Shown here: in pieces, positions 2,068 through 62,611 of the stretch
How positions within the stretch are numbered: the stretch's first letter is position 1
Layout of the letters: each line of letters starts with the position of its first letter
Program-made: the position numbers and the translations under genes
Notes under the pieces: generated by a model
The model's database searches: none
What the model saw: the letters and a program-made list of their open reading frames with translations, nothing else
What the model was told of the DNA's origin: nothing
Assembly: GCA_041664465.1 (NCBI GenBank)
Contig: JBAYKP010000003.1
Location: forward strand, 19,405-83,404
DNA length: 64,000 nucleotides
Source: Minisyncoccota bacterium
GTDB lineage: Bacteria > Patescibacteriota > Minisyncoccia > Phycocordibacterales > UBA9973
Direction of reading: 5' to 3'

Positions 2068-2210
2068 AATTCCTCCCCTTGATAAGGGGGACTGAGGGGG
2101 TTGTTTCCCCTCTCCTTTACAAGGAGAGGGTTGGGGAGAGGTTCCTAATTAATTAAGAACCTCCCCTCATTCCCCTCCTTAGTAAGGAGGGGAGGAATTA
2201 GCTCAATCTT
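2068..2210. repeat. GC-rich palindromic repeat family 1, copy 1 (longest copy, carries an extra internal hairpin)
   Basis: aattcctcccct...cctaattaattaagaacctcccctc...tcccctccttagtaaggaggggaggaatt; intergenic upstream of pilB. Confidence 0.6.
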
Positions 2211-7184: not shown

Positions 7185-7222
7185 ATATTATCACATCTTT
7201 TGCTCTTTGTCCGTAGAATTTT

Positions 7223-7262
7223 TCCTCCCCTGTGAAGGGGAGGTGGCTCCTAGCCGGAGGGG
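7223..7262. repeat. hairpin repeat family 2, copy A (cctcccctgtgaaggggag gtggct..agcc ggagggg)
   Basis: matches the copies at 14797, 27419 and 62305; intergenic between tyrS and PBP; source of the spurious ORF 7171..7449. Confidence 0.5.
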
Positions 7263-7285
7263 TTTTTGTGTTATGATATATAAGT

Positions 7286-14332: not shown

Positions 14333-14794
14333 ATGGATCAAGAACTTGTAAAATCAATCATAGAAAATATTTTTACACATACAGCTTGTACTATTTCCAA
14401 GTGCGAACTATCCCTTGAAGATGGGATGCTTTGGTGTATGATTGAAACTCCAGATTCAAGATTTATGATTGGACGTGAAGGAGAGACCCTCAGATCCCTC
14501 AATCATTTAGTCCGTAAGATTGCTGAGAAGGCAAGTGGCACAGAAGAAATTTCTAATATCTTTGTGGATGTGAATGGATATCAAAAGAAAAGATTTGATA
14601 ATCTGAAAAATATTGCTCATATGATGGCCGAGAGAGCCCGCTATTTTAAGAGTAATATCGAGATTGATCCTATGCCTGCCAATGAACGTCGCATTGTTCA
14701 TATGTTCTTAGAGAAGATTCCAGATATTAAAACAGAATCAGAAGGCTATGGACCAGAGAGAAGAGTGGTAATTAAATATATAGGAAACAACTAA
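14333..14794 (+). CDS. khpB: Jag/KhpB R3H-domain RNA-binding protein
   Basis: KH-like fold plus R3H motif (ERRIVHMFL); canonical position after yidC. Confidence 0.75.
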   Translation: MDQELVKSIIENIFTHTACTISKCELSLEDGMLWCMIETPDSRFMIGREGETLRSLNHLVRKIAEKASGTEEISNIFVDVNGYQKKRFDNLKNIAHMMAERARYFKSNIEIDPMPANERRIVHMFLEKIPDIKTESEGYGPERRVVIKYIGNN

Positions 14795-14796
14795 AT

Positions 14797-14838
14797 CTCC
14801 CCCTGCTAAGGGGGAGTGCCTGAAAGGCGAGGGGGTCA
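14797..14838. repeat. hairpin repeat family 2, copy B
   Basis: ctccccctgctaagggggag tgcctgaaaggcga gggggtc; intergenic. Confidence 0.45.
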
Positions 14839-17525: not shown

Positions 17526-17526
17526 A

Positions 17527-18531: not shown

Positions 18532-18560
18532 TATATAATATTTACCAAGTTATTGCATTT

Positions 18561-18654
18561 TCTCCCCTCCTTACCAAGGAGGGGACCAAGGAGAGGTTCT
18601 TAATTAATTAGGAACCTCTCCCTCCCCTCTCCTTAGTAAGGAGAGGAGCTAATT
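18561..18654. repeat. GC-rich palindromic repeat family 1, copy 2
   Basis: tctcccctccttaccaaggagggga...cttaattaattaggaacctctccc...ctccttagtaaggagagg; overlaps the VirB4 stop codon. Confidence 0.6.
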
Positions 18655-20478: not shown

Positions 20479-20485
20479 AATAATT

Positions 20486-21139
20486 TTATTGTAATTTAAT
20501 TCCTTGACTAATATCCCCAGGATTGAATGTCTTATAGAAAAGTTCTACGACTTCGTCCGTTTTAAGCTGACTACTTCGTATCCCTATCCCACTTAATCCA
20601 TTAATAATGACGTTCGTTCTTTGTTCTAGCTGGCTACGCTTCTCCTCGAAAGATGCTAGATCCATAGCCTTCTTGGTATCCTCTACTTGTTTCTTGGGGG
20701 CTCCGCCACCAATCAGACTATCTACTATGCCATTCCCAGATTTTATAATACTTGAACTATATGGCACAACGACGAAGAAAGTTTTCGTCATTATGTTCAC
20801 TTCATCTGTGAAAGATCGAATGAAGTCTATATATTCTTTCGTCTGTATTTTAAGGAGGGGTTCGGTTTGCTCTTTCAAGCGATTCTCAAGCATTAAGAGA
20901 TATGGCCTTATATTCAAGCGTCTGGACTGGATTACAATTTGAGTGGAGAAATCTAGACCATTTAAGAATGATTGGAATTGATTAATAATGGCGACTTGTT
21001 CATCGGAAGACTTAAGAGAGAGGTTGATGGAGGAAGCGATAAGGATAGCACGAAGACCACCATCCTTAAGTACAATGATGCCATTGCGGACCTCCTTTAT
21101 AGGAACGAACTCTTGTGCTGCTTTTGAATCAATTGCCAT
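20486..21139 (-). CDS. VirB4-family N-terminal domain, separate ORF ending 7 nt upstream of the ATPase ORF in a different frame
   Basis: pattern IKEVRNGIIVLKDGGLRAILIASSINLSLKSSDEQVAIINQFQSFLN typical of conjugative VirB4 N-termini; the two ORFs total 826 aa. Confidence 0.5.
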   Translation of the reverse strand: MAIDSKAAQEFVPIKEVRNGIIVLKDGGLRAILIASSINLSLKSSDEQVAIINQFQSFLNGLDFSTQIVIQSRRLNIRPYLLMLENRLKEQTEPLLKIQTKEYIDFIRSFTDEVNIMTKTFFVVVPYSSSIIKSGNGIVDSLIGGGAPKKQVEDTKKAMDLASFEEKRSQLEQRTNVIINGLSGIGIRSSQLKTDEVVELFYKTFNPGDISQGIKLQ

Positions 21140-21163
21140 AATTTATACTAATATTATATCACA

Positions 21164-21574
21164 CTATTTATCGTTTCTATCTTGAACGTCCAAACTCCAA
21201 GATAAATCCTTCAATTTACTTTCTGAAAGCATTGGTACATTGGATATGGTAGTGGGCATTTGCACATCTTCATCTTGTATATCCCCTTTCTTTACAAGTC
21301 TTTGCTTCCACAAGTAAAGTTTGCTTGAGATTAAGTAATTAAAAGAAGCTTCTAAATAATATATGAAAGGCTTGCCATTTATTTTCACAAAGACGAGGCA
21401 GACAGTAAGCCCAGCGACGGGTAAGATAAGGAAGATGCCTATCCAAAGTGGCAAGATTTTGTATATGACGAAAATTATTCCTCCTCCACCAATCAAAAAG
21501 GCAAATTGGCGAAAGGTAAAAGGGCCAAAAATTTTATCTTCTATGTCTATAAATTGTGGTACTTTGAATTGCAT
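21164..21574 (-). CDS. small two-TM membrane protein, PrgI/VirB3-like
   Basis: 136 aa, two TM helices, immediately upstream of VirB4. Confidence 0.4.
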   Translation of the reverse strand: MQFKVPQFIDIEDKIFGPFTFRQFAFLIGGGGIIFVIYKILPLWIGIFLILPVAGLTVCLVFVKINGKPFIYYLEASFNYLISSKLYLWKQRLVKKGDIQDEDVQMPTTISNVPMLSESKLKDLSWSLDVQDRNDK

Positions 21575-21576
21575 AT

Positions 21577-22602
21577 CTATATTTCCTCATGATATGGATC
21601 GTGAGGTTTTGATTGAGGTTCTCCGCTCATCTTTGGTAGAGAATAGTCACTTACAGAAGCTTTGCTAGTTGTATTACCGAATAGTTTATTGGTGATGATG
21701 TTGGGAGTAGGTGTGGATTTTTCATCATCTGAAATTATTTCTATGCCGTGTTCTTTATACATATCAGTTTCTTTGGTATTCGTATTTGCAATTATATTTT
21801 CTATTTCACTTTGAGAAGACCCCTTCTGCCCTTCAGGCATCTCCCCCTTAGCAGGGGGCGAAGAAAATACAGGTGATGGTATCGGAACAACTTCTTCTTT
21901 CTTTTTCGCATAAGGCGGAAGTGGCACCTCATCATTTGATTTTTCATTCTTAACTACTTTTATCCCTTCTTCTTCTACATTTTTTATATTTTTAAATATA
22001 TTTTCATTTATTTCCCCCACCATTTCTTGTATTTTATCATTCCCCAAGTCTATCTTGGACCTTATGGCATCTTCATATTGATTACCCGCTATGGTATTCA
22101 GTATTACCTTTACTGTGATGTCTTCTAATATTCCCATTTGCTCCACATTAATCTTATACTTTCTAGCTACATCATATAATTTTTCTTTCCAATTAGAATA
22201 AGCAATTGATTCTTGGATGTCTTTCGGTAAGCTTGCAAAACGAAGATCAAGATTTTTATTATTTAAAGAGATTGCGTTGGATTGGAAAGTTTCAGTAAGC
22301 TCTCCTTTTATTGTTTTAAGGATATTTTCATCTATTTCTATTAATATTTTTTCTGTAACTTCTTTTTCTAATTCCAAATCTTTCCTTAAAATATTTTGAT
22401 ATTCTTCAATATGAATAATACCCAGTAATACCAAGGTGGTTTCTGTGGCTAAAATTTCTATCCGATTTTCTTTTAAACCATATTTAATACCAAGTTCTTT
22501 AAGTTTTTCCATCCAGAGCATAGAAGAGAAAACACTCTGAGCCTCTTTCGGGAGCTTCTGGTAGTATTCTGCTATTTTTTGTTGTAATTGTATTTGATCC
22601 AT
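21577..22602 (-). CDS. hypothetical protein; contains an in-frame partial copy of repeat family 2 (plus 21841-21860, encoding SPPAKGE)
   Basis: no recognisable family; inside the T4SS-like operon. Confidence 0.45.
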   Translation of the reverse strand: MDQIQLQQKIAEYYQKLPKEAQSVFSSMLWMEKLKELGIKYGLKENRIEILATETTLVLLGIIHIEEYQNILRKDLELEKEVTEKILIEIDENILKTIKGELTETFQSNAISLNNKNLDLRFASLPKDIQESIAYSNWKEKLYDVARKYKINVEQMGILEDITVKVILNTIAGNQYEDAIRSKIDLGNDKIQEMVGEINENIFKNIKNVEEEGIKVVKNEKSNDEVPLPPYAKKKEEVVPIPSPVFSSPPAKGEMPEGQKGSSQSEIENIIANTNTKETDMYKEHGIEIISDDEKSTPTPNIITNKLFGNTTSKASVSDYSLPKMSGEPQSKPHDPYHEEI

Positions 22603-22611
22603 AGTTATTTT

Positions 22612-25374
22612 TTAGTGATGAGCCCCACCTCCTCCATGTGCATCTCCTCCTGTGCTTGTTGGTGCTTTTGGAACTTCTATTTTTACACCCTTCAGTGCTT
22701 CTGTAATTGTTGCTCCTATATCTTTTATCGCATCTCCTTGCCCTTGTCCGTGGTTAACCCCAGAGCTCTTTAATCCAGCACGAACACCAAGAGCTACTCC
22801 AGCAATCATAGCAGTTGGAATTTTATTAAAGAATCCGTCTCTCTTATCTGTATTAACTTGAGAAATATTTCGAACATCATAACTAGCCTTATTTGATCTA
22901 GCGAAGCCTCTTGTAAGCATTGAAACATTTTGTTTAGATTCTTCACGTAAGTGTTTGAATAATCCTTCAAGTTGAGCATCTGTTGTAACTTTTACTGCGG
23001 CATTTAATTTGATATCCAATTCATCTTCCATTTTCTTCTGTACTTCACCCTTTAACTCACCATTTTTATCCAAATTCTTTGAATCTTTTTTCAACTCAGC
23101 AGCCACTTCTTCTCGGTTTTTTGATTTGAACGCCTTTTCTCCTACAAAACTACGGCCCTTTTCATCTACAATTCTTGCTTCGTTTTTACCAGTAGCATCA
23201 AGACCTTTTCTTGCATTTGTTTCAACATCAGATCTCTTTGTCTTATTAAAGGTTGTTTTTAGCTTGTTTTCATCTTCACCAGAAATATTACTATCTTCTA
23301 ATATATTACCATTAGCATCTACAAGTCCAGCAGCTTTCTTCGTCTCGTCTATTTCATGACGAGCATGGTCAATCTTATTCGTATCTCTTTGTGATTTATT
23401 TAGCTGAGCACCCAAACGACTAAATACGTTAGTTTTAGGAACAGCATTTGCCTTTTTATGATCTTCCCATGTTGGTTTAGCCCCTCTTGTTTTAGGATCT
23501 GCAGCTTTCCACTTCTCAAGGTTATCATTGAATTTAATTTTTTCTGTTTTTATTTTATCAAGATTTTCTGGAGTAGCTCCTTCCATTCGTGACATTTTAG
23601 CTATTCCTGCACCAACGACTCTTCTTCCTAATAATGCAGTTCCAAGTGCCGCTCCACCAAGAAGCATTCCACCAGTTGCGGCTATTCCTCCTGTAATTTG
23701 TTTACCTATCTCCCCAGACATATCTGAAGCGATACCTTTTGCTTTTATAAGGAAAATCATTATAAAAATAAAAGGTATGGTTATTCCTAAAATAAAATCT
23801 AAACCACTTTTACCATCGGTAGAGAAAAGACCTAGCCCAGTATCAAGGAATTTAATTATTATATATAAAAAGAAAATAAATACAGGGGCAAGGAATGCCA
23901 TCTTCAAAGTATCTGGCCACCAATTCTTCCATCCAATCATTTTTATACTAGACATTTCAGGAAGTATATAAGTGAAGAATGCAAGTGGGGCTAGGATCAT
24001 AGCGAGCCAGAGTCCGATGACTCGAGCCACGAACATTAATCCAACAGAAATAAATACAATAATCCCAACAATATTAATGGCGGATGTTAGTAAAATAACC
24101 AAGATAAAAGTGCTAGCAGAGATTCCATTTTTTTGGGTTCCATCTGATCCAATATTTCCTTTTGCTGTTATATTACCGACGTCTGATGCATTTATAATTA
24201 ATTTTTGTGGATTAATTTTTGAAACAAGCGCTTCTGATAATTTTATTTCACCGGTAGATCCAGGTGCATTTTGTATTACCCCATCAATCTTGGGGCCTAC
24301 TTTTATAGCGTCTGAATTGTAGAAAACTCTAGCAGTAATATTGGATGCATCAATAATCACTTGAGTAGCGAAAAGAGAAAAGTTTATAAATAGTCCAATG
24401 ATAACTATATTTATAATAGTTTCTTTGGTTTTCACACTATGCAAGTTTAGTATTGTGCCTATCGCTATATAAAGCATTATGAATATGAAAAATAAATTAC
24501 AGAAATCACGCACAAGCCCCCAGCCTTGCACTACGAAAGTAGACCGATACGAAGAATCTTGGACAGAGTATGAAAAAGTTTTATCAAACAGTGTTCCAGA
24601 TAAAGCAAATAAAACAGAAGTTGGTTTGAAGACTGCCCAATAAAGAAGACTACCAAAACAGCCACCAATATTACTCCAAAAATTCCATGGACATTGTGGT
24701 AGTATAGAATCAAGATAATTTTGATTAACATTTACATTTTTATCAAGAGTCACCACCTGTGGGTTATCAGCGCTGTTTGTTGTTATTGCGGGAGATTCAC
24801 CTATGGATGTTTCATTTGATTCAGTACCGGGATCTGCAAGTTTAGCACCAATTGCAATACCGACTGCCATTCCTAAAGGATTTAAAGTAAAAATTCCTGC
24901 TACAACACCACCAGCAAATCCACCAGCAGCACTAACGATAGTGGAGGCCCAAAGAGGAGTTGTTTGCGATGCAACAGTTTTTAAAACATATGTTGTGCTA
25001 GGATTTAAGTTTGGAAAATTAAAGCTACCAGTTCTTACTACATAAGCTTCTTTCTCCATAGTAGTATTATCTCTTACTGCATCTTCAAGTTTAATATTCT
25101 GTACGAAAAGTGCGACATTATTTGTGTCTAAAAGATAAACAATTGCCGCAGCCTTACTTATATTAAAATCACCACTTTCAAAGACAACGCGTACGGTCCC
25201 AGATATTGTGGTGTTTGTCTTTTGTGGAGATGTTGTTACTTTTATACTATCAGCCGCACTGGCTTCATTCTTCCCAATCTCCACCTTATTTTTATTCCAC
25301 CCCACACTAAACGGAGCGAAGAGGTTCGCAGAGATTATGAGTGATATTAAGATGTATGATATGATTCTCTTCAT
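22612..25374 (-). CDS. large polytopic membrane protein, VirB6/TrbL-like candidate: signal peptide, roughly 300-aa exodomain, multi-TM core, long Lys/Glu-rich tail ending in Gly/His
   Basis: topology read from the translation; head of the operon containing VirB3/VirB4. Confidence 0.45.
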   Translation of the reverse strand: MKRIISYILISLIISANLFAPFSVGWNKNKVEIGKNEASAADSIKVTTSPQKTNTTISGTVRVVFESGDFNISKAAAIVYLLDTNNVALFVQNIKLEDAVRDNTTMEKEAYVVRTGSFNFPNLNPSTTYVLKTVASQTTPLWASTIVSAAGGFAGGVVAGIFTLNPLGMAVGIAIGAKLADPGTESNETSIGESPAITTNSADNPQVVTLDKNVNVNQNYLDSILPQCPWNFWSNIGGCFGSLLYWAVFKPTSVLFALSGTLFDKTFSYSVQDSSYRSTFVVQGWGLVRDFCNLFFIFIMLYIAIGTILNLHSVKTKETIINIVIIGLFINFSLFATQVIIDASNITARVFYNSDAIKVGPKIDGVIQNAPGSTGEIKLSEALVSKINPQKLIINASDVGNITAKGNIGSDGTQKNGISASTFILVILLTSAINIVGIIVFISVGLMFVARVIGLWLAMILAPLAFFTYILPEMSSIKMIGWKNWWPDTLKMAFLAPVFIFFLYIIIKFLDTGLGLFSTDGKSGLDFILGITIPFIFIMIFLIKAKGIASDMSGEIGKQITGGIAATGGMLLGGAALGTALLGRRVVGAGIAKMSRMEGATPENLDKIKTEKIKFNDNLEKWKAADPKTRGAKPTWEDHKKANAVPKTNVFSRLGAQLNKSQRDTNKIDHARHEIDETKKAAGLVDANGNILEDSNISGEDENKLKTTFNKTKRSDVETNARKGLDATGKNEARIVDEKGRSFVGEKAFKSKNREEVAAELKKDSKNLDKNGELKGEVQKKMEDELDIKLNAAVKVTTDAQLEGLFKHLREESKQNVSMLTRGFARSNKASYDVRNISQVNTDKRDGFFNKIPTAMIAGVALGVRAGLKSSGVNHGQGQGDAIKDIGATITEALKGVKIEVPKAPTSTGGDAHGGGGAHH

Positions 25375-25472: not shown

Positions 25473-26171
25473 TTAATTACTATTATTATCAAGATTTAAT
25501 TTTAGTAAGAAAATAGTCTCCTTTTTAAGTTTTTCACGGGCCCAATCCTTTTGAGACGAAGAAAGCAATTCCCCAAGACCGTCTAAGATATGCTTATTAT
25601 CCATATTTTCAAGCATCTTTATACACTTGATCAAAGTATCTTTAAAAGATATACCAGATCTATTTTCCACTATCTTTTTATTTATCTCCCAGTTGTTTTT
25701 ATAAAAGAAATAAACATCAAATATGTCTCTGCTTGTTTTGCCAATTCTTTCATACATAGCCATAAGTTTATGGGCAAACATATCTTCTTTGACCATTACA
25801 AGCATTGAGATGCCGAGCAATGTTTTAATCTCATATTTAGAGCCAAATTGTCTACGGCTCACTTCTACTTTTATTTGCTGAGCTCCTTTCTTATATGAAA
25901 TAATATTAAGCAAATTGAAATGCTTTATCCTAGATTCTGTGATAGTCCCATAGCTTTCAGTAATTTTCTGAATCTTATTAAAGACCTCTTCTTCCTTAGT
26001 ATCATCCAATAAATCAAAATCAAGATCCACTGAATTACGATCTAAGCCGTAGAATAAAAGAGCGGCAGTGCCACCTTTGAATCCAAGATATGGAGAGATA
26101 GAGGTGTCAGAATAAATATCTTTCAAGATTTGAAGTAATATATTTTTGTGTTTTGAATAGTCTAATGTCAT
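25473..26171 (-). CDS. AbiEii/AbiGii-family nucleotidyltransferase (type IV toxin-antitoxin or abortive-infection toxin)
   Basis: FKGGTAALLFYGLDRNSVDLDFDL matches the family GGTAL...R.S.DLDF signature. Confidence 0.55.
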   Translation of the reverse strand: MTLDYSKHKNILLQILKDIYSDTSISPYLGFKGGTAALLFYGLDRNSVDLDFDLLDDTKEEEVFNKIQKITESYGTITESRIKHFNLLNIISYKKGAQQIKVEVSRRQFGSKYEIKTLLGISMLVMVKEDMFAHKLMAMYERIGKTSRDIFDVYFFYKNNWEINKKIVENRSGISFKDTLIKCIKMLENMDNKHILDGLGELLSSSQKDWAREKLKKETIFLLKLNLDNNSN

Positions 26172-26191
26172 ATTTTTTTATTTTCTTCTTT

Positions 26192-26839
26192 TTATTTTTT
26201 AAAATCATCATAATACTTCTTCACGGTTTTTGCCATTCTCTTATTATGATAGATTGGCAAGATTTCAAATACTTTTTCCCAATCTAATGGGTTTGTGTTA
26301 TCAATATAATATTTTTTACTTACATATATACGGTCTAAGTAAGCACGCTCTTTTGTTGCTCTGGCATAACCGTCACTATTTTCAATTCCTAAAGTATTAC
26401 TTAATACATAATCTTTCATTCTAATAAATTCTATTTTTTGTCCATCAACTTCCATTTCTCTTTTTATGTATGAAGCCACAAAAATATTTCCATAATATTG
26501 GAAAGTCATACCAGATGAACCCAAGACAGTTTCAAAGCTGATATATGAAGGAGTATTTATTCTAGTGGCTAATTCAAAGCGGTTATAGTTTTTATCTTTA
26601 ACATATAAACCACGATGAACTCTAATCAACTTCTTTGCTTTAACGTAGTAATTCAATCTCACACGCACAGGTCCGTTAGCCTTTTCTCCCCACATTAAAG
26701 CAACATCTTTATTGGAAAAGACGGTTTTACTAGACCTCAATAAAATATCTAAATATTCCCCTTTTTGAATTTTTTTATCCATATATCTACTGGAACTTAG
26801 TTTAAACCTAACATCCAGTCCATATACTAGCATAAACAA
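26192..26839 (-). CDS. AbiEi-family antitoxin/transcriptional regulator candidate
   Basis: directly upstream of AbiEii on the same strand; LIRVHRGLYV matches the AbiEi motif; probable start at the internal MDKK. Confidence 0.45.
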   Translation of the reverse strand: MFMLVYGLDVRFKLSSSRYMDKKIQKGEYLDILLRSSKTVFSNKDVALMWGEKANGPVRVRLNYYVKAKKLIRVHRGLYVKDKNYNRFELATRINTPSYISFETVLGSSGMTFQYYGNIFVASYIKREMEVDGQKIEFIRMKDYVLSNTLGIENSDGYARATKERAYLDRIYVSKKYYIDNTNPLDWEKVFEILPIYHNKRMAKTVKKYYDDFKK

Positions 26840-26986
26840 TATATAAATACAACCCTTTTAATCTCCTCCTTATAGAGTGGCTGTAAGCCGGGATGGACTG
26901 ACATTTGACACATTTTACATATCTGATATACTGTACTTACATTCGGGATTTTCCCGCGACCCTACTGGTAAAACAGTGGGGAATAT

Positions 26987-27400
26987 TTATTTATACAGAC
27001 TATTAAACCCTATTCTAACCTTTTTAAAATCTTCACCATCTAATGTTCCAAGTTTTGAGAATAGTCTACGATAATCCACAACCCTTACTTGATGTAAACA
27101 AGCAAACATTTCTATGTTTTTATGAATAAAACCCACATACCAAGAACCCCTTTTGTCTTTCGTTGTAGTAGGAATAATAAGATAGAAACTGTGTGATAGT
27201 TTCTTATAAATAATTCCAGGTCTTGTAAATATTTCACTTTTACCATTTATCTCTGATCCAACATTTTCTCCTAGACTTATCCACCAAATATCTCCCTCTG
27301 ATACAAAAGGAGGCCGCGATTCTTTATTGTGCAACTTCTCTTTCAACCCTATCCATTCTAGAAATTTTTTAATTATATTATGTTTTTCTTTTTCCAACAT
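26987..27400 (-). CDS. MazF/PemK-like endoribonuclease toxin with about 40-aa N-terminal extension
   Basis: GDIWWISLGENVGSEI...RPGII, IIPTTTK and HQVRVVDYRRL align with MazF GDLIWVDF...RPAVVL, CVPCTTQ and ADQVKSIAWRAR. Confidence 0.5.
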   Translation of the reverse strand: MLEKEKHNIIKKFLEWIGLKEKLHNKESRPPFVSEGDIWWISLGENVGSEINGKSEIFTRPGIIYKKLSHSFYLIIPTTTKDKRGSWYVGFIHKNIEMFACLHQVRVVDYRRLFSKLGTLDGEDFKKVRIGFNSLYK

Positions 27401-27418: not shown

Positions 27419-27543
27419 GCTCCCCTGCTAAGGGGTGAGCTTGGGATTATGGGACCCAAGCGCAAGACCGTGAACGTTTTGTAACCAGAATGTGAACGGT
27501 GTACTGCTCCTGTAAGGAGGTGCCCGTAGGGCGAGGGGGTCTC
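27419..27543. repeat. hairpin repeat family 2, copy C, expanded with about 85 nt of additional GC-rich hairpins
   Basis: gctcccctgctaagggg ... gcttgggattatgggacccaagc ... tgcccgtagggcgagggggtc; intergenic. Confidence 0.45.
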
Positions 27544-27555
27544 TTAATTATAATC

Positions 27556-33533: not shown

Positions 33534-34433
33534 CTAATTTTTTATAGAAAGATTGGATATTTCTATCCATTTTTCAAATTTGATATCCTCAGCTCTTGCC
33601 TTAGGATTTATATCTAATTTTTCAAATATTTCATCTATTTTATTTATATAAGGAAGTCCGACTTCCTTAATTTGTATGTTTGGAAGTCCGACTTCCAAAT
33701 TTTTACGGAGGACTTTTCTTTTATGAGCAAAGCCTGCTTTGATAAGTTGGAAGAATGAATCTTCTTCATTTTTATTTTTGAAAAATTTGTTGGAAATATC
33801 TCCTATGTGAATAATTGCCGAGTCCACCTTAGGAGCTGGGGAGAAGAATCTTTTATGAACTTTCATTATGTATTTTGGTGTGCTGAAAGCTTTCACGGAA
33901 AGAGAAAGAATACTTTCCTTCTCATCTCTTGCTACAATTCGCTCGGCTACCTCTTTCTGGACCAAGAGAGTCATACTGACAGGCTTTGGTTCTTCACTTA
34001 AAAATTTCCTAAGTATTAAACCGGTGATGTTGTAAGGAATGTTGGCGACTATCTTATAGGTATTAATTCCTCCCCTCCTTACTAAGGAGGGGACTGAGGG
34101 GAGGTTCTTAATTAATTCACCCCTCCCTAGCCCTCCCCTTAGTAAGGGGAGGGGATTAAAATTTAAAATATCTTCATTTAATAAAATTAGTTTTCCAGAT
34201 TTTATTTCTTCTGTGAATTTTTCATTAAGTATTTCTATCAAGTCGCGGTCTTTCTCAACCGCAATTACTTTCCTCGCTCTCTCTAAAAGTTTCTCTGTCA
34301 GTGCCCCCTTCCCTGGGCCAATTTCAACAACTATATCTTTATCATTCACACCACTCATCTCGCACATCTTGAAAAGCGCCTCTTTAGACTTCAAGAAATT
34401 CTGCCCCATACTTTTCTTTGCTTGATGAATCAT
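33534..34433 (-). CDS. rsmA: 16S rRNA (adenine1518/1519-N6) dimethyltransferase carrying an in-frame repeat insertion of about 32 aa
   Basis: MGQNFL, VEIGPGKGALT SAM motif, NIPYNI; the insert [32 protein letters not shown] is encoded by repeat family 1 copy 3. Confidence 0.8.
   Translation of the reverse strand: MIHQAKKSMGQNFLKSKEALFKMCEMSGVNDKDIVVEIGPGKGALTEKLLERARKVIAVEKDRDLIEILNEKFTEEIKSGKLILLNEDILNFNPLPLLRGGLGRGELIKNLPSVPSLVRRGGINTYKIVANIPYNITGLILRKFLSEEPKPVSMTLLVQKEVAERIVARDEKESILSLSVKAFSTPKYIMKVHKRFFSPAPKVDSAIIHIGDISNKFFKNKNEEDSFFQLIKAGFAHKRKVLRKNLEVGLPNIQIKEVGLPYINKIDEIFEKLDINPKARAEDIKFEKWIEISNLSIKN
34065..34157. repeat. GC-rich palindromic repeat family 1, copy 3, in frame inside rsmA
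   Basis: aattcctcccctccttactaaggaggggactgaggggaggttcttaattaatt...ccctccccttagtaaggggagggg. Confidence 0.6.
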
Positions 34434-34434
34434 A

Positions 34435-36372
34435 TTATAAGTATACTACCTTCTCTCCACCTTTTGAATAACTCTGCCTGAATTCTGTCAGGTGAACTGG
34501 GATGTCGTAGATGAATTCACTCGGAGTATTTACTTGTTTCATTCCGAAAATTGTACGCAATGTTGTATAAGTAAGGAAAAGTTTTTTCTCTGCTCTTGTG
34601 AGTGCCACATAGAAAAGTCTTCTCTCTTCCTCTTTATCTTCTTTCGTTCCCTGACCTGTTCTTGCATGTGGAAATAAATCTTGCTCAAGCCCCGTGACGA
34701 AGACATATTTGAATTCTAGCCCTTTCGATGCATGCACTGTCATCAATCTGACTCCGCCAGTTTTAGCTTTATTTATAAGGCTATCTTGGTCACTTGAAAG
34801 TGAAGCATCTTCTAAAAGTTTTTCTATTCCATTCTCCATTGTGTCATATTTTATGGCGAGAGTTACAAGCTCTTTCATATTTTCTAATCGTTCCATTTCT
34901 TCATTTGTACCATGCGAGAGTTCCTCTTCAAGTCCCGACTTCTCTATTATATATTTTATTATTTCAGATGGTTTATGCGTATCAATATACTCGTGAATAT
35001 TTTCTAATAATTCATAGAATTTATTTATTTTAATTTGCATTCCCGCTGGTAGTTCTGCGAACTGACCCGCGAAAAGTTTCGTGAGTGTCACCTTCCCTAC
35101 TCCACGAGCCGGAGTATTTATAATTCTTTTTATATCTGTTAGGCTTTCTTTATTCAAGCTTGCTTTAATATATGCGATGACATCTTTGATTTCTTTTCTC
35201 TCGAAAAATTTTACCCCAAGGACTTGGTAAGGAATTTGCCGAGAGAGCATTGCCTCTTCTAAGACGCGGGATTGAAAGTTCGCACGGTACAAGACTGCTA
35301 TATTCTCTGGTTTATTTTCTTTTAGGAGTTCATCTATTTCTTCCGCTACAAAATTTGCTTCTGATGTTTCATCATAAGCTTCGCAGACCACTATCTGCTC
35401 GCCATCTACATTTTTAGTAAATAAAGTTTTCGGTACTCTATACTGATTCTTCTCTATCACACTATTGGCAGCTTCTATTATCTTTCCTGTGGAGCGGTAA
35501 TTCTGCTCAAGCATCACAATCTTGGCATTCGGATAATCTTTTTCAAAACGAATCATGTTTTTAATGTTCGCTCCTCTCCATGAGTACACACATTGATCTT
35601 GATCCCCAACAATACAAATATTTTCATCTTTACTTACTAGAAGCTTCGTCATTTCATACTGCACTTCATTTGTATCTTGATACTCATCTATATGCACATA
35701 CTTCCACTTCTCTTGATATTTATTTTTAACCTCTGGAAACTTCCGCAAAATCATTACAGATTCCAAAAGTAAATCATCAAAATCAAGCCCTTTTTCATTT
35801 TTAAGTCTGGCTTCGTATCCACCCCAGACGAGGGCTACAATACTTTGCATGCTACTTTTCACCTCTCCTCTATAATTAGGAAGTGTAATAAAGTCACCTT
35901 TGGCTTTGGAAATAATACTTTTAATTTTCCTTGGCTCGTGTTGCTTCGGGTCTATATCGTGCTCTTTCATCACATCTTTGATAATAGAGATAGCGTCACT
36001 CTCGTCTATTATAGAGAAGTGCTTGGTAAGGCCTATCAGGTGGGCATTCTCTTTTATAATATGTACTCCAAGAGAATGAAAAGTAGAGACAAATGGAGTC
36101 CCCGCGCCAGAGCTTCGCTCTGGCGCACTTATCCCATGCCTTTTGTCTTCCAGTAGCATCATCACTCTATCTCGCATTTCCTTGGCAGCCTTATTTGTAA
36201 AGGTTACTGCCAGAATAGAAGAAGGATTCACTCCTTGATGTATCAAATGAATTATCCTGTGTGTTATCGTCTTCGTCTTCCCCGCCCCCGCCCCTGCTAC
36301 TATCAAAAGAGGCCCATCTGTATACAAGACTGCCTCTTTCTGTTTATCATTCAATTGCTCCAAATATTGCAT
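34435..36372 (-). CDS. uvrD: ATP-dependent DNA helicase UvrD/PcrA family
   Basis: GAGAGKTKT Walker A, DEYQDTN, QNYRST helicase motifs. Confidence 0.85.
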   Translation of the reverse strand: MQYLEQLNDKQKEAVLYTDGPLLIVAGAGAGKTKTITHRIIHLIHQGVNPSSILAVTFTNKAAKEMRDRVMMLLEDKRHGISAPERSSGAGTPFVSTFHSLGVHIIKENAHLIGLTKHFSIIDESDAISIIKDVMKEHDIDPKQHEPRKIKSIISKAKGDFITLPNYRGEVKSSMQSIVALVWGGYEARLKNEKGLDFDDLLLESVMILRKFPEVKNKYQEKWKYVHIDEYQDTNEVQYEMTKLLVSKDENICIVGDQDQCVYSWRGANIKNMIRFEKDYPNAKIVMLEQNYRSTGKIIEAANSVIEKNQYRVPKTLFTKNVDGEQIVVCEAYDETSEANFVAEEIDELLKENKPENIAVLYRANFQSRVLEEAMLSRQIPYQVLGVKFFERKEIKDVIAYIKASLNKESLTDIKRIINTPARGVGKVTLTKLFAGQFAELPAGMQIKINKFYELLENIHEYIDTHKPSEIIKYIIEKSGLEEELSHGTNEEMERLENMKELVTLAIKYDTMENGIEKLLEDASLSSDQDSLINKAKTGGVRLMTVHASKGLEFKYVFVTGLEQDLFPHARTGQGTKEDKEEERRLFYVALTRAEKKLFLTYTTLRTIFGMKQVNTPSEFIYDIPVHLTEFRQSYSKGGEKVVYL

Positions 36373-36395
36373 TCCCTTATTGTAGCATTTTATTT
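36305..36395. repeat. 91-bp direct repeat, copy 1 (native uvrD 5' end plus upstream region)
   Basis: near-identical to 37642-37732 (2 mismatches). Confidence 0.6.
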
Positions 36396-36406
36396 AATTT
36401 AATTCT

Positions 36407-37537
36407 TTAGTTATATTCTTCTAGATTCTCTAAATATTTTTCTGCATTTTTTATTTTTGCACCAGATTTAGAAACCCTCTCTGTTTGTAGATTATATACT
36501 ACTTGCGTACTTTCCACTTTGTATTTTTCTCTGAAATATTCCAAGGTTTTTGATATACTACTATCAGAAACTTTTGCTTCAATGATTTCTATTAAATTAT
36601 TTTCACTATCTGATAAGGCAAAGTCCACCTCTTTCTTTTCTTTGGTCTTTAAAAATCCGAGAGAATATGAGGCTCCATCTCTATCATTTTTTAATTTTAT
36701 ATGTTTATACAAAGCAAGTGCTACGAAGTTTTCGAATTTTGCACCAACATCATTTATCAAAGCATAATCAAAGAAATAAATTTTAGGTTCTTTTAAGATT
36801 GAACGAGAAATTTTATGAGTGTATGGTTTTATTATAAATATAATATATATTGCTTCCAATATCTCAATATATTTTTTTACCGTAATAGAAGAAATCCCTA
36901 TATCTCCTGCGATATTACTATAACTTATAGGTGAGCCTACTTTATTTTTCAAAGATTGATATACAAGACGAATAGCATTCACTTTATCTATATCTTGAAA
37001 TTCTAAAACATCTTGTCCCAGAAGACTCTCAGTATATAAACTACGCCAACGGTTTACATCTTCATTGTTGCTGGCTAGTAATGGCTCGGGGAACCCGCTT
37101 CTTTCCATTAGTAAGCTTGCAACATTCTCTATATCACTTCCTTTTAATTCACTCAGAGTAAATGGGAATAGATGGTGGACATAGAATCGTCCAGCCAGCG
37201 AATCCCCCACTTTTTTAAATGCATCCATTCTAGCACTTCCAGTCACTAGTATGTGTACTGATGAAGATTTTGTATCATATACTCCCTTTAAATAATTTTT
37301 CCATTTTGGCATTTTATGGATCTCATCAAACACAATTAGATCAACATCAGGGAGCCAAGCTTCTTTTCGAATTATTTCTCGATGGTCACTGTTATCATAA
37401 TTCAAATAAACAGGATTTTTATATTCCTTCATTATCTCTTTGGCCAGCCAAGTCTTCCCCACTTGTCGTGGTCCCACAATAAAGACCATTTTCTTTTGTA
37501 AATCGGAGAGTATTTTGTTGTATATTTTCCTTTTCAT
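36407..37537 (-). CDS. AAA+ ATPase with C-terminal DUF4143-like domain
   Basis: Walker A GPRQVGKT, Walker B LIVFDEIH; flanked by the 91-bp direct repeats. Confidence 0.7.
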   Translation of the reverse strand: MKRKIYNKILSDLQKKMVFIVGPRQVGKTWLAKEIMKEYKNPVYLNYDNSDHREIIRKEAWLPDVDLIVFDEIHKMPKWKNYLKGVYDTKSSSVHILVTGSARMDAFKKVGDSLAGRFYVHHLFPFTLSELKGSDIENVASLLMERSGFPEPLLASNNEDVNRWRSLYTESLLGQDVLEFQDIDKVNAIRLVYQSLKNKVGSPISYSNIAGDIGISSITVKKYIEILEAIYIIFIIKPYTHKISRSILKEPKIYFFDYALINDVGAKFENFVALALYKHIKLKNDRDGASYSLGFLKTKEKKEVDFALSDSENNLIEIIEAKVSDSSISKTLEYFREKYKVESTQVVYNLQTERVSKSGAKIKNAEKYLENLEEYN

Positions 37538-37641: not shown

Positions 37642-37732
37642 AAAAGAGGCCCATCTGTATACAAGACTGCCTCTTTCTGTTTATCATTCAATTGCTCCAA
37701 ATATTGCATTCTCCTATTGTAGCATTTTATTT
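37642..37732. repeat. 91-bp direct repeat, copy 2 (duplicate of the uvrD 5' end)
   Basis: near-identical to 36305-36395; overlaps the stop of ORF 37727..38035. Confidence 0.6.
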
Positions 37733-46557: not shown

Positions 46558-46571
46558 AAATAAAAACAACT

Positions 46572-46600
46572 AGCCCCGCCGGTAAACCGGCGGGGCTATC
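46572..46600. terminator. bidirectional terminator hairpin gccccgccgg-taaa-ccggcggggc between convergent genes
   Basis: perfect 10-bp GC stem read directly. Confidence 0.6.
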
Positions 46601-48256
46601 TTAATATATTTCTTGTTGATAACAAGATTCACAGTAGATAACTTCAGACCTATCTGGGGCGTAAGTAGTTTCAAATTCATTTGAACAACCAGGTTTCATA
46701 CAAGAACGATGATATAATTTCATTCCATTTCTTTTTTTCATTCTGTCTTCATGTCTGCATTCAAAATCTTTGTGAGGTAATGGCAACCCCATTTTTTTAT
46801 AGAAAGTTAATTCAGCTTCAACTATTTTGAAATTTTTATTACATTTTTCACAGATCAGAATTTCATCTAGAATCTTTTCATCGATATTATTTATAGAATT
46901 AGGTATCTCGCCTTTTTTAATCGTTTCTTTTCCAAAAGTTCCTGTAGTTTTCTCTTGCCACTCATATCCTCTTTTAGTAGCTTCTTCTTTTGTAAGTGGG
47001 AAGAAATCATGAATCAAGGATTCGTTGTATGCAAATGGTGCAACTTCGGGTGGGAAGAATTGTCCGAAATCTTTTTCTTTTTTCATTTGCTCATAAATTT
47101 TTTCTCTCAAGACTAAATATTCTTCTTTGGAGTACTCTTTATTAAAGATCATATTATTGCCTTTTCTAATAGAGATGCATCCTATGGCATTTGATAAATG
47201 GTGACAGTTGTCGCAATATTCAACCTCATTACAATAAAAAACAAAGGCAGAATTCTTGAGCTTACTCCCTTCGAGTGCTCCCATAATATTGTATCCGAAT
47301 TCTGGCTTATAGTAATAGTTATTACAATCCCAACTATCAGTTGGACTTTCTGTGTCCTTCATATAGGAACAGTTTTTAGCATCATAAGTATCAAAAAGCA
47401 TTACTCCCTCGTGGCAATTATGGAGATAGTCACCCGTTACATTATTGCATTTGGTTTGTGTAGAAAATTTTACAATAGTTTCCTTTTTTAATTTCTCGAA
47501 TTCTTTTTTTGTGTTTTCTATGCTCTCATAATTTTCTAAGATTTCTTTTTTCTTTTTATCAAATTCTTCCTTACTATACTTAATATTTAAAATCGCGTTA
47601 GACATATTCCTTCCATTTGTACACATAATGCAATTATTTGAATTTCGCATGTTATAACAGAACAATAAATCACTAGATGATTGGCATTTTTCACTAAACA
47701 TACATTTAAAACATTCACGACTATCTATACACTCGTAACATAATTCTGATTCATGGAGAAAAGCACAATCCATACATTGTTTATCTCTTTGTAGAAGTCT
47801 CCCATATAAACAGTCTTCATTATAATCAGATGCGAAAATAAGATAGCAATCTTTATTTTCAGCTGAGCCATTTGTATAATCGCTCCTGACATTCTGAATA
47901 GCGACAAGCCCAAGCCTTGGGACTTTCGCTTGTAGTTCTTTGTATTGTTCAAAAAATGATTTAGAAAAATCATAATCTTGCGCATAATCTTTCGGATTCC
48001 ATTCATCACTCCACCAACATTTACTACAATAAACTTTGTATGGAGCATCAGGCGTATAAAGTGTAATCATATTTTCTTTGCACAAGTCACACGGTCTTTT
48101 ATATAAAATTCTCTCATTGCGGAACATCAAACGTCTCGCCATTCGACATTCCGGGCAGTAAATAGGAGGAACAGTCTTCATCTGCTCATAAAACACAAGA
48201 TCTTCATCTCTTATCTCAAATTCTTTCTCACAAGTTTTGCATATTTCTTTTGTCAT
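46601..48256 (-). CDS. cysteine-rich hypothetical protein with internally duplicated zinc-ribbon-like terminal domains
   Basis: N-terminal CKTCEKEF..DLVFY..M...CPECRM and C-terminal CEKCNKNF..ELTFY.KM.....CRHEDRM repeat each other; more than 40 Cys, many CxxC pairs. Confidence 0.5.
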   Translation of the reverse strand: MTKEICKTCEKEFEIRDEDLVFYEQMKTVPPIYCPECRMARRLMFRNERILYKRPCDLCKENMITLYTPDAPYKVYCSKCWWSDEWNPKDYAQDYDFSKSFFEQYKELQAKVPRLGLVAIQNVRSDYTNGSAENKDCYLIFASDYNEDCLYGRLLQRDKQCMDCAFLHESELCYECIDSRECFKCMFSEKCQSSSDLLFCYNMRNSNNCIMCTNGRNMSNAILNIKYSKEEFDKKKKEILENYESIENTKKEFEKLKKETIVKFSTQTKCNNVTGDYLHNCHEGVMLFDTYDAKNCSYMKDTESPTDSWDCNNYYYKPEFGYNIMGALEGSKLKNSAFVFYCNEVEYCDNCHHLSNAIGCISIRKGNNMIFNKEYSKEEYLVLREKIYEQMKKEKDFGQFFPPEVAPFAYNESLIHDFFPLTKEEATKRGYEWQEKTTGTFGKETIKKGEIPNSINNIDEKILDEILICEKCNKNFKIVEAELTFYKKMGLPLPHKDFECRHEDRMKKRNGMKLYHRSCMKPGCSNEFETTYAPDRSEVIYCESCYQQEIY

Positions 48257-61054: not shown

Positions 61055-62611
61055 TTATACCCCATGCTTTTTGTGTAATTTCTCAATTTCTTCTTTTTCT
61101 AGTTCATCCTTTTTCTCTTTTCCGCGTTCCCCTAGTGTTTTCAGCTCATCATCGCCGAGCATATCTAGGGAAGCGACTAATTCACTCAGATGCTCAGGAG
61201 TGTTTTTGGTGGGGTCGTCGAGGACTTCTTCGAGGAGGGCATTCAGAATCCATCCCATTCGGGGCCCAGGTTTCATGTGTAACACCTCCATCATATACTT
61301 GCCGTTAATAGCTAATTGACCGACGGAGATAGGATCACGGAGGACTTCTTCTATCATTGCATGATATTTGCGGAGTCTATAAGGGGTCTCTTTCTTCTTC
61401 ATTCCTACCCTATCGCACTCGCGAACATTCATAAGGTCCCAGATATTCTCCTTGCCGACATGCTGGACTACCCTTCTGACAGCCGAAAGTGTTATCTTCT
61501 CTGTATCTGAGAAGAACATATGGTTTCTCGTGAAACTAATCACCTTTTCTATAGTATTTCTAGGATATTTCAATCTTTCCATTATTTGCTTTGTCATTCT
61601 AGCTCCTATCACTTCGTGGCCGTAGAATGTATATTCTTTCTTGGTTCCTACCCTTCTAGACCTTGGCTTGCCTATATCGTGAAAGAGGGCTGAAAGACGA
61701 ACTTCCAAAGACCAGCCTTTATTTGCAGCATGATCGAGAGCATGAAGTAGATGCTCCCAAACATCATATATATGGGCACCTTTCTGCTCGCATCCTATAC
61801 CCTCTTCAAGTTCTGGAATTATATATTTGAGCAAATTAAGCTTTTGGAGTAAGCCTATTCCAGCGACTGGATTATCTGAGTTTATTATCTTTGTGAATTC
61901 ATCACGGATTCTTTCAAAAGATATATTCTTTATTAAACTTGAATTATCTACAATTGCCTGCATTGTTTCATATGAAACAGCAAAATCGAGTTGGACGGAG
62001 AATCGAATAGCTCGAAGCATACGTAAGGCATCTTCCCTAAATCTATCATTCGGGTTACCTACGGCTCTGATAACTTTGTCCTTTATGTCCTTTACACCAC
62101 CAAATAAATCTATAAGATGTCCGTTACTATGACTACCCTCCTTTGCCAAGGCTATGGCGGGCGAGTAAGCCAAAGCATTGATTGTAAAGTCTCGTCTTTT
62201 TAAATCATCTTCTATATTTTCACTGAAATTTACTTCGTCCGGATGGCGAAAATCGCTATATTTTGCTTCGGTTCTATAGGTTGTAACCTCAATTATTGTA
62301 TTTTCCTCCCCTGCTAAGGGGAGGTGGCTGTAAGCCGGAGGGGTCAAAGGGAGAACTATTCCAACGGTTCCAAATTTATTCTCATATATAGTCTTTTCAA
62401 ATAAAGGTATTATCCCCTCGGGTTTAGCATTTGTGGCTATATCCCAATCTTTTGGTTCCCTCTCTAATATTAGATCTCTTACACAGCCACCCACTAGAAA
62501 GGCCTCAAAACCTGCTTTTTTGAGTGTTTCCGTTACACGTGTAACATATTCTGGTATTTTTGACTTATCTATGTTTAGATGATTAGTCATAATATTTATA
62601 AAGTTAGTCAA
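61055..62611 (-). CDS. cca: CCA-adding tRNA nucleotidyltransferase / poly(A) polymerase family HD-domain protein, with a 16-aa in-frame repeat insertion
   Basis: GGCVRDLIL, RDFTINALAY head-domain motifs, HD domain; the insert PLTPPAYSHLPLAGEE is encoded by repeat family 2 copy D. Confidence 0.75.
   Translation of the reverse strand: MTNFINIMTNHLNIDKSKIPEYVTRVTETLKKAGFEAFLVGGCVRDLILEREPKDWDIATNAKPEGIIPLFEKTIYENKFGTVGIVLPLTPPAYSHLPLAGEENTIIEVTTYRTEAKYSDFRHPDEVNFSENIEDDLKRRDFTINALAYSPAIALAKEGSHSNGHLIDLFGGVKDIKDKVIRAVGNPNDRFREDALRMLRAIRFSVQLDFAVSYETMQAIVDNSSLIKNISFERIRDEFTKIINSDNPVAGIGLLQKLNLLKYIIPELEEGIGCEQKGAHIYDVWEHLLHALDHAANKGWSLEVRLSALFHDIGKPRSRRVGTKKEYTFYGHEVIGARMTKQIMERLKYPRNTIEKVISFTRNHMFFSDTEKITLSAVRRVVQHVGKENIWDLMNVRECDRVGMKKKETPYRLRKYHAMIEEVLRDPISVGQLAINGKYMMEVLHMKPGPRMGWILNALLEEVLDDPTKNTPEHLSELVASLDMLGDDELKTLGERGKEKKDELEKEEIEKLHKKHGV
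62305..62345. repeat. hairpin repeat family 2, copy D, in frame inside cca
   Basis: cctcccctgctaaggggag gtggctgtaagcc ggaggggtc. Confidence 0.5.

Follow-up and report, generated by a model that had tools for sequence, protein, structure and literature searches.

Palindromic repeats between genes and in frame within ksgA and other housekeeping genes of Patescibacteria: a probable counterpart of the Rickettsia palindromic elements

How can a GC-rich palindromic repeat lie inside the gene of an essential enzyme and leave its reading frame intact? The question is raised by a stretch of 64,000 nucleotides from a Minisyncoccota bacterium (assembly GCA_041664465.1, contig JBAYKP010000003.1, positions 19,405 to 83,404), referred to here as the window, which has 35% GC and 48 open reading frames (ORFs). 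This 64-kb stretch contains four copies of a repeat of about 103 nt each, called family A, and the third of them is located within ksgA/rsmA, the gene for the 16S rRNA adenine dimethyltransferase. The Patescibacteria, or candidate phyla radiation (CPR), are about as reduced as Rickettsia and phylogenetically remote from it, and are thought to be streamlined and to hold few mobile elements. The original prediction, made from the letters of the window, was that the repeats behave like the Rickettsia palindromic elements (RPEs). The four repeats are probably members of a selfish palindromic family, similar to the RPEs and to the Correia elements, that has spread through CPR genomes of the Paceibacteria/Nomurabacteria type. 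The copies and the host gene are listed below, with the boundaries given by a hidden Markov model (HMM) built from related copies, for which the window scores are 92-108 bits.

2102..2200, minus strand: copy 1, canonical form (stops in six frames), HMM 105 bits
18553..18655, plus strand: copy 2, canonical form, HMM 92 bits
34061..34164, plus strand: copy 3, open-frame variant core TTAATTAATTCACC, inside ksgA, HMM 108 bits
57944..58046, minus strand: copy 4, canonical form, HMM 108 bits
33534..34433, minus strand: ksgA/rsmA, 16S rRNA adenine dimethyltransferase of 299 aa, host of copy 3, Pfam RrnaAD E=2e-52

The common architecture predicted for the four copies was recovered at the expected places. 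The copies align end to end, with 76-87% identity over the full aligned length, or 82-90% when only the core columns of alignment A4 are counted; A4 comprises 56 unique full copies. The hairpin motif CCYCTCCTTANYAAGGAGRGG occupies 8 window sites (16 matches on both strands) versus 0.02 expected by shuffling, and the core GGTTCYTAATTAATTARGAACC occurs three times versus 0 expected, with copy 3 presenting its variant core instead. The elements are richer in GC than the window (47-52% versus 35%), so the predicted direction stood and the wording "far more GC-rich" was somewhat overstated. Three copies are intergenic. Copy 1 lies between two divergent neighbours, an ORF at 1313-1936 (minus) and a PilB-like T2SSE gene at 2251-3951 (plus), and copy 4 between a gene of the NYN domain (minus) and a tyrosine recombinase gene (plus, ORF 58063-59004). 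Copy 2 occupies the spacer from a VirB4-like gene (TraG P-loop/AAA_10 match in Pfam) to the next gene; it had been described as abutting the VirB4 stop, and its edge in fact covers that codon (18649-18651).

The family extends well beyond the window. A strict pattern matching all four window copies, scanned over one genome per species, identified 21 loci in about 12 metagenome-assembled genomes (MAGs), all of them Patescibacteria (one labelled Saccharibacteria) apart from a contig labelled 'Syntrophales', and 53 loci in a metagenome collection. The HMM search gave 125 matches, equal to 92 unique loci, mostly intergenic, from Paceibacteria/Nomurabacteria-type genomes and metagenomes. Membership in a dispersed, multi-copy family of about 103 nt is thus established by 92 unique loci in at least 12 MAGs. 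The mean identity over all pairs of copies is 84%. The window copies resemble one another less (82-90%) than they resemble copies from unrelated loci in other MAGs (97-98%): copy 1 shares 97% identity with the copy of another MAG at locus L020, and copy 4 shares 98% with those at the non-orthologous loci L055 and L053. Homogenisation within the genome is therefore not supported. Not all copies are recent, because some share orthologous intergenic positions across genomes, for example upstream of ftsH, where L007 and L017 carry one form each, canonical and variant. Carriage by phages or plasmids was rejected, as the phage, viral and plasmid collections IMG/VR, INPHARED and PLSDB gave 0 family-A matches. 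A HMMER search with the 32-aa peptide of the ksgA copy against 1.84 billion protein representatives returned a single unrelated repetitive protein; the in-gene copies described below were located by DNA search and not by peptide search.

Two observations concern individual loci. The 'Syntrophales' contig (L021, JBAZOY010000069.1) and a Paceibacterota contig (L004) contain the same element with the same flanks and come from the same sampling campaign, and because of this shared sequence the Syntrophales label is probably a binning error. The DnaA-box-like TGTGGATAAC is immediately adjoined by a family-A copy in several MAGs (L001:1884, L062:6018, L066:420 and L051:5072), and this may be one orthologous position in the origin region.

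The anatomy of the element is that of two 10-bp GC-rich hairpins (CCCCTCCTTAnnAAGGAGGGG) on either side of a palindromic core centred on TTAATTAATTA. The consensus of the 56 copies comprises, in order, A-N-TTCC; hairpin 1, TCCCCTCCTT-ACC-AAGGAGGGGA (10-bp stem, 3-nt loop); a 5-nt AT(GA) spacer; the core GGGGAGGTTCTTAATTAATTAGGAACCyCTCCC; a 4-nt cAG spacer; hairpin 2, CCCTCyCCTT-AGT-AAGGrGAGGG; and GGAA-N-T. Conservation drops steeply beyond the ends A-N-TTCC and GGAA-N-T. These ends are terminal inverted repeats, and both terminal hairpins are inverted copies of each other. The core TTAATTAATT is almost invariant among the 56 copies.

In the covariation analysis of the same alignment, helix 1 was paired in 100% and helix 3 in 97% of the cells, and six pairs were changed on both sides, such as C:G to U:A (11 sequences) and the reverse, U:A to C:G (24 sequences). 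A single long hairpin joining the left and right arms of the whole element was ruled out; it showed 0 compensatory pairs and one position unpaired in 44 of 55 sequences. Two local hairpins were accepted, since the compensatory changes are found there and none support the long-range pairing. Compared with shuffled controls, the ksgA copy has the more stable fold, with -26 kcal/mol (z=-3.4) for DNA and -54.5 kcal/mol (z=-3.6) for mRNA. No Rfam family corresponds to the element: tRNAs alone reach the gathering score, and the element yields only generic hairpin matches (miRNA precursor) far below threshold, so a known RNA family was discarded.

The family exists in two forms, and only one of them is found inside genes. 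The canonical core, TTAATTAATTA(A/G), places TAA in three frames of each strand and has no open frame. In the variant, ..TTAATTAATT----CACC.., 3-4 nt of the core are missing and each strand has exactly one open frame. Form and location were counted in 54 full copies, excluding those fetched via KsgA or UvrB look-ups. All 34 copies with no open frame are outside genes, while 7 of the 20 with at least one open frame are inside (7/20 versus 0/34, Fisher p=4e-4). A canonical copy in a gene would truncate the protein because of the TAA in all six frames. The hosts, identified by Pfam, are the following.

KsgA: window copy 3, reverse strand of the element read
UvrB: four assemblies with one shared site, forward strand of the element read
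Queuine tRNA-ribosyltransferase (Tgt): forward strand of the element read
RluA-type pseudouridine synthase: forward strand of the element read
MetRS, class-I release factor and phosphogluco/phosphomannomutase (PGM/PMM family): related or partial copies

The presence of the same family in frame in at least three more housekeeping genes (UvrB, Tgt and the RluA-type synthase) supports the RPE-like behaviour that had been proposed from the ksgA copy. The encoded peptides differ by strand, a 29-letter peptide from the reverse strand in KsgA and the unrelated PPLLTKEGNEGRFLINSPLPSPPLSKGRE from the forward strand in UvrB, Tgt and RluA. Since opposite strands are read in different genes, the DNA dictates the peptide, which does not represent a conserved protein module. 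A filled UvrB and an 87%-identical empty orthologue (VSAN[AFPPLL..REKS]SYP versus VSASTDSNYG) differ by a clean addition with no duplication. Removal of the kind seen in inteins or introns is unsupported, because only stop-free variants occur in genes.

The sequence of events that would account for this distribution begins with canonical copies, which on landing in a gene would truncate its protein and would not be kept. A derivative lacking 3-4 nt of the core would have one open frame per strand, and its copies could be tolerated in frame in permissive surface loops of essential proteins, where transcription and translation would turn them into a disordered peptide stretch.

The ksgA copy would be one of these. 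It lies within the 299-aa RrnaAD ORF, so the predicted location inside the rRNA dimethyltransferase gene is correct, and its 31 codons (34065-34157, minus strand) contain no stop. Alignment with structures in PDB breaks at the insert, where residues 5-74 and 126-294 of the query match residues 22-91 and 122-285 of Bacillus subtilis KsgA. An AlphaFold (AF2) model built from 49 orthologues has a mean confidence (pLDDT) of 84, and values below 50 are confined to the N-terminus, residues 252-261 and the insert itself, residues 103-121, which lies between the strands formed by 82-85 and 127-131. The 31-aa insert is thus predicted to be a disordered loop. It would take the place of the short crossover loop that leads from motif III (strand ..EDILNF) to motif IV (strand YKIVANIPY), and would lie on that side of the Rossmann sheet which faces away from the catalytic NIPY loop.

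The 49 closest KsgA orthologues were compared at this site. Most of them have a loop of about 10 aa, NF[ND]-PEKFKIKEGE-YKIVANIPY. The nearest relatives, P0004-P0007 (81-88% aa identity), are without the element. DNA alignment identified it, with site and orientation unchanged, in P0002, P0003, P0008, P0012, P0017, P0029 and P0065, with partial copies in P0011, an in-frame internal deletion remnant, and P0048. The insert is therefore lineage-specific, as proposed: it is absent from the closest orthologues, and those that carry it (P0002, P0003, P0008 and others) have the same element DNA. The claim of about 32 added residues holds for the stop-free frame, which has 31 codons, and not for the net gain, which is only about 21-23 aa over typical orthologues because the filled alleles are without the ancestral loop.

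An ordinary lineage-specific loop or small domain of KsgA, with the intergenic look-alikes explained as coincidence or gene fragments, is a very improbable account of these 31 residues. The beta3-beta4 connection of KsgA/Erm does vary in length and reaches 30 residues in B. subtilis, but the same DNA of about 100 nt is present at 92 loci, mostly intergenic, its opposite strands are read in different genes, its frame is shifted in P0003, the closest orthologues are devoid of it and its pLDDT is below 50. An assembly artefact, in which a repeat-induced chimeric join placed the repeat in ksgA, has a negligible probability. Repeats can misassemble MAGs, and one matching contig (L021, equal to L004) is evidently mis-binned; against this, the identical 299-aa protein is recorded from four sources, and independent assemblies of other samples (L024, L025, L028, L029 and L030) contain the element at the same codon with the frame intact.

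At least 8 KsgA lineages preserve the reading frame, one of them via compensating indels. Relative to the window allele, P0003 has 4 nt more at the left edge and 1 nt less in the core, so that the first half is read in another frame (an 18-letter peptide) and the ORF remains intact, which argues that selection acts on the reading frame only. The insert is presumably translated and close to neutral.

Whether the KsgA site was filled once or several times is a separate matter. A neighbour-joining (NJ) tree, made with the variable regions left out, shows filled and empty alleles interleaved, and therefore either several gains occurred at one site or one old gain was followed by many losses with homogenised survivors. 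A single ancient insertion, repeatedly lost and homogenised by gene conversion in the survivors, is possible and perhaps somewhat less probable than the alternative. All KsgA copies have the same codon position and orientation and all are without the 10-aa loop, as this history expects; the diverged variants P0029 and P0065 have element identities (0.55-0.72) similar to the rest of the gene (0.63-0.68), the internal deletion of P0011 resembles a loss in progress, and the loop of P0005 keeps AATTAAGAA, which can be aligned to the element core. However, the homologous PxxFxLKEGE loop of most orthologues looks ancestral, with the filled alleles nested among them in the NJ tree. Moreover, identity between alleles falls exactly at the element edges, and the pair P0001/P0008 (element 90%, gene 68%) would need conversion or a fresh insertion. 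Recurrent insertion at a hot spot, the alternative, agrees with the finding that such sites are hit repeatedly, by family B at the same KsgA site and by at least 8 sequence types at one UvrB site, as described below.

Other parts of KsgA also vary in length. The C-terminal part of the window gene contains two copies of a mini-palindrome that encodes EVGLP.

33653..33695, minus strand: mini-palindrome GGAAGTCGGACTTCC (13-15 nt, encodes EVGLP), two copies 30 nt apart, 4 matches versus 0.01 expected

Orthologues present 0, 1 or 2 copies of it, the region coincides with the low model confidence at residues 252-261, and P0002 has an additional hairpin, CCCGCCTTATCGGCGGG, nested in its EVGLP-region loop. 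At the other end of the protein, orthologues P0009, P0037, P0052, P0061, P0084 and P0099 (alignment A2) have the N-terminus HKAKKSMG-LNKFSxENLSPDFS-HRAKKNLGQNFL, in which the first 8 codons are duplicated around an inserted segment of about 15 aa, possibly a further inserted element at the 5' end of the gene.

The same protein sites are re-used by unrelated hairpin families. In another clade of KsgA (P0046, P0053, P0058, P0076 and P0084) the same codon position is occupied by a different palindrome, with long AT-rich inverted arms and the core GGTCCTCGGAYGAGGGAGGACGAG. This core recurs inside ORFs, in L085 (the UvrB loop) and L040 (another ORF), and between genes in L019, L051 and L068, and on account of this recurrence it defines a second dispersed family, B/C. 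Its core is GGTCCTCGGAYGAGGGAGGACGAGGRGCCAGACC, between A-rich and T-rich arms (L026:390-500, L085:2306-2420, L040, L019:1148-1260, L051 and L068); because of this arrangement it looks like a bidirectional terminator, and it is intergenic as well as in frame in KsgA, UvrB and a third ORF. The hot spot of UvrB lies between VSA and YP-GQIQDF, where 74 of 112 close orthologues have 19-61 extra residues of at least 8 sequence types. Among these inserts (L010, L031, L057, L072, L084, L085; P0122-P0241) there are seven clear family-A cases, one of them a tandem double (P0166), and family B/C. UvrB also has several rarer insertion sites.

A second GC-rich hairpin family, D5, is formed by CCTCCCCTGyrAAGGGGAGG, GGCTnnnAGCC and GGAGGGGT. 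In the orthologous L013, a D5-type hairpin occupies the same point after the VirB4 stop that copy 2 of family A occupies in the window. The members of this family in the window are given below, together with the solo hairpin beside copy 1 of family A.

2068..2100, no strand assigned: solo hairpin module CCTCCCCTTGATAAGGGGG with spacer, a partial extra copy adjoining copy 1, D1 family member 2059-2092
7220..7263, no strand assigned: D5 copy, intergenic
14793-14836 and 27509-27545: further D5-like copies
62301..62344, minus strand: D5 copy read in frame within the gene of the CCA-adding enzyme (61055..62590, minus), to which it contributes about 15 additional residues (LPLTPPAYSHLPLAGEE region)

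The residues contributed by D5 to the CCA-adding enzyme are lacking in solved CCA enzymes: the PolyA_pol head domain spans 146 aa versus a profile of 126 positions, and the alignment with PDB 6ibp is gapped at exactly the D5 point. In uvrD/pcrA (34435..36372, minus), a perfect GC-rich palindrome, GCGCCAGAGC-TTCG-GCTCTGGCGC, is located in frame at 36094-36130 with the peptide ..ISAPERSSGAGTP.., and may be another small in-frame hairpin insertion.

A broader interpretation of these findings is that Paceibacteria carry a population of unrelated hairpin modules (family A, B/C, D5, the EVGLP mini-palindrome and at least 8 UvrB types), placed with no duplication by an undescribed hairpin-directed mechanism at re-used sites, namely after stops and in a few permissive loops. 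Family A would then be a gene-boundary insulator, its six-frame stops and Shine-Dalgarno (SD)/anti-SD-like hairpins keeping it almost invariant between species, and the modules would be partly domesticated and a major, continuing origin of new peptide stretches in essential CPR proteins. We regard this interpretation as speculative and rather unlikely as a whole.

The intergenic copies were also classified by the genes on either side. Among 36 classifiable ones the flanking genes are tandem in 30, divergent in 6 and convergent in 0, versus 168, 25 and 20 in the background. In 27 of the 31 element ends facing an ORF of >=100 codons the stop codon is 6-30 nt before the terminal hairpin stem (18 within 6-15 nt), so the stop coincides with the element edge or is only a few bases from it, as for window copy 2. 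Downstream start codons show a looser spacing, with a median of about 30 nt. Selection against disrupting promoters or ribosome-binding sites where operons are compact could produce this stop-proximal placement, and so could a preference for certain targets or a 3'-end function like that of REPs. In Escherichia coli about half of the REPs are within 15 nt of a stop codon and modulate the expression of the upstream gene.

These positions are among the evidence for a different explanation, that the element is a functional cis-acting module under selection and the in-gene copies are by-products. The module could be a post-stop gene-boundary element whose six-frame stops block translational read-through and whose 3' hairpins stabilise or attenuate mRNA, as in REP/BIME, or a binding site for a protein or recombinase. 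Beyond the stop-codon spacing and the gene orientation, it would draw support from the 97-98% identity across species at non-orthologous loci, from the compensatory changes that maintain both hairpins, from the near-invariant core and from the hairpin arms CCUCCUUA/UAAGGAGG, which read as anti-SD/SD-like. However, of the three window copies outside genes, two are flanked by divergent genes and hence occupy promoter regions instead of 3' ends. Sequence inspection found no T-run after the family-A hairpins, which are thus not canonical intrinsic terminators, and this role was discarded. A selection filter in compact operons would likewise push the survivors toward stop codons, and the arrival of unrelated hairpin families at the same sites indicates that no specific sequence is needed there. 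The in-frame copies in essential genes, together with the tandem (P0166) and deleted (P0011) ones, resemble selfish spread and decay. A cis-acting module is accordingly judged unlikely.

Several results weigh against a selfish mobile family nonetheless. Transposition was not observed and no autonomous partner was identified. Target-site duplications were sought in 54 unique copies (k=2-8, over a range of boundary offsets) and showed no excess over permuted flanks; the TA or TTAA duplications suggested as a check gave no signal, and the comparison of filled and empty UvrB likewise shows no duplication. The 48 window ORFs yielded no transposase domain, and the only recombinase is the tyrosine recombinase beside copy 4. 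A clean empty/filled pair at an intergenic site between very close strains was not found. In KsgA, the filled alleles have all replaced the ancestral loop of about 10 aa, an outcome not expected of simple insertion. Between KsgA alleles the element shows 90-94% identity and the remaining gene sequence 66-81% (68-81% for P0002, P0003 and P0008 against the window gene); such conservation, much better than that of the host gene, together with the 98% identity between species at unrelated loci, would also fit purifying selection on a functional sequence. Support for translation of the insert, finally, is indirect, from the kept reading frame and from the restriction of in-gene copies to open-frame variants.

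A selfish family remains the reading that we prefer, and the elements are inferred to be mobile now or to have been so recently. The tyrosine recombinase (58063-59004) was rejected as the mobiliser, with no homologue near the elements at other loci, and no RAYT (Y1) gene is found in the 64-kb window. A classical miniature inverted-repeat transposable element (MITE) moved by a DDE transposase is disfavoured by the lack of target duplication, the covarying hairpins and the lack of a transposase in the window. The hairpin ends, the lack of duplication, the placement near stops and the compensatory changes hint, weakly, at single-strand transposition of the REP/RAYT or IS200/IS605 type more than at DDE-type MITEs. 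The elements might be mobilised in trans by a hairpin-recognising enzyme (Y1/HUH, a RAYT- or IS200/IS605-like transposase) or by recombination or template switching at hairpins, and selection would then spare only the copies just after stop codons and in permissive loops.

The remainder of the window includes dnaA/dnaN, a type IV secretion system (T4SS) cluster, uvrD, cca and pnp. A 91-bp direct repeat (98% identical, 36305-36395 and 37642-37732) brackets an AAA_14/DUF4143 ATPase gene (36407-37537) and duplicates the first 68 nt of uvrD with its upstream region; the arrangement resembles that of an inserted gene with a long duplication of its target, and related contigs have DUF5663 upstream of uvrD in place of the ATPase gene. 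The T4SS cluster (16050-25374) comprises an SLT/T4SS-pilin protein, the VirB4-like ATPase, a PrgI-family protein and large unannotated ORFs, consistent with the monoderm-type T4SS of Patescibacteria (bioRxiv 10.1101/2025.01.22.634366), and is followed by AbiEii and PemK/MazF toxin genes (25473-27400). A GC-rich hairpin, AGCCCCGCCGG-TAAA-CCGGCGGGGCT, at 46566-46602 by the 3' end of ORF 46601..48256 looks like a terminator unrelated to family A.

If the preferred reading is right, protein-coding palindromes would be a recurrent outcome of reduction in AT-rich genomes and not an oddity of Rickettsia. With KsgA, UvrB, Tgt and the CCA-adding enzyme among the essential enzymes affected, they would explain part of the length heterogeneity and of the unexplained insertions in CPR protein families, as in the UvrB hot spot, and would give studies of protein robustness a ready-made collection of hundreds of tolerated loop insertions. 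They would also raise the question of how hairpin elements are mobilised with no target duplications where no transposase is evident. In practice, such repeats can mislead the assembly and binning of MAGs, gene calling and alignment-based phylogenomics of CPR.

Full-text searches for palindromic elements or MITEs together with CPR, Patescibacteria, Parcubacteria or Paceibacteria returned nothing relevant, with incomplete coverage. The statement that no such system has been described for CPR-like bacteria agrees with the searched literature and, because that literature is incomplete, is provisional.

The closest known system is that of the RPEs, described as RPE-1 to RPE-10 (Ogata et al. 2000, 2002; reviewed in PMC2229807 and PMC10969869), which are 105-146 bp long, form several families and are in frame in 19 or more conserved genes, the insert being tolerated by the enzyme (PMC2229807, PMC10969869). 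Both systems comprise several families of palindromes of about 100-150 bp in the small AT-rich genome of a host-dependent bacterium, with copies between genes and in frame in conserved housekeeping genes, inserts at sites that in family A are predicted to suit the fold, unclear target duplications and no known cognate transposase. The likeness is behavioural and does not come from sequence comparison; the lineage, Patescibacteria, is unrelated and the sequences presumably so. Family A differs also in having two local 10-bp hairpins around a core and not one long stem, in a canonical form with stops in all six frames, of which only the deletion variant enters genes, and in the re-use of the same protein sites (KsgA, UvrB) by several unrelated palindrome families.

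The split between two forms is that of the Correia elements (NEMIS) of Neisseria: the 155-bp form, with every frame closed by stops, is almost always located between genes, whereas the 107-bp form with an internal deletion has open frames and is often fused in frame to genes (PMC2229807). Size (about 100-155 bp) and terminal inverted repeats are shared as well. The Correia elements, however, have 24-26-bp terminal inverted repeats and a TA duplication, no duplication having been found in family A, and are AT-rich with an IHF site, in contrast to the GC-rich hairpin arms described here. With REP/BIME/REPIN-RAYT and IS200/IS605 family A shares short pairs of GC-rich hairpins, the lack of duplication, positions near stop codons in tandem arrays and compensatory stems. 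REPs are extragenic by definition, whereas 7 of the 54 full copies of family A are in genes; in addition, the window has no RAYT/Y1 gene, the 5' tetranucleotide of GTAG type is missing and the TTAATTAATTA palindrome is without REP counterpart. As a classical MITE the family fails, presenting the terminal inverted repeats and not the target duplication.

Yeast mitochondrial GC clusters and the double-hairpins of fungal and algal organelles are also GC-rich palindromes of small AT-rich genomes, in frame in protein genes such as var1 and at re-used sites. They are organellar and of unrelated sequence.

Family A is thus an RPE-like system in a second, unrelated lineage of reduced genomes, a new instance of a known phenomenon and not a new phenomenon, since the behaviour is known from RPEs, Correia, ERIC and similar repeats (PMC2229807, PMC10969869). 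What distinguishes it is the combination of a core with stops in six frames, hairpins backed by covariation, no target duplications and a strong re-use of sites by several families.

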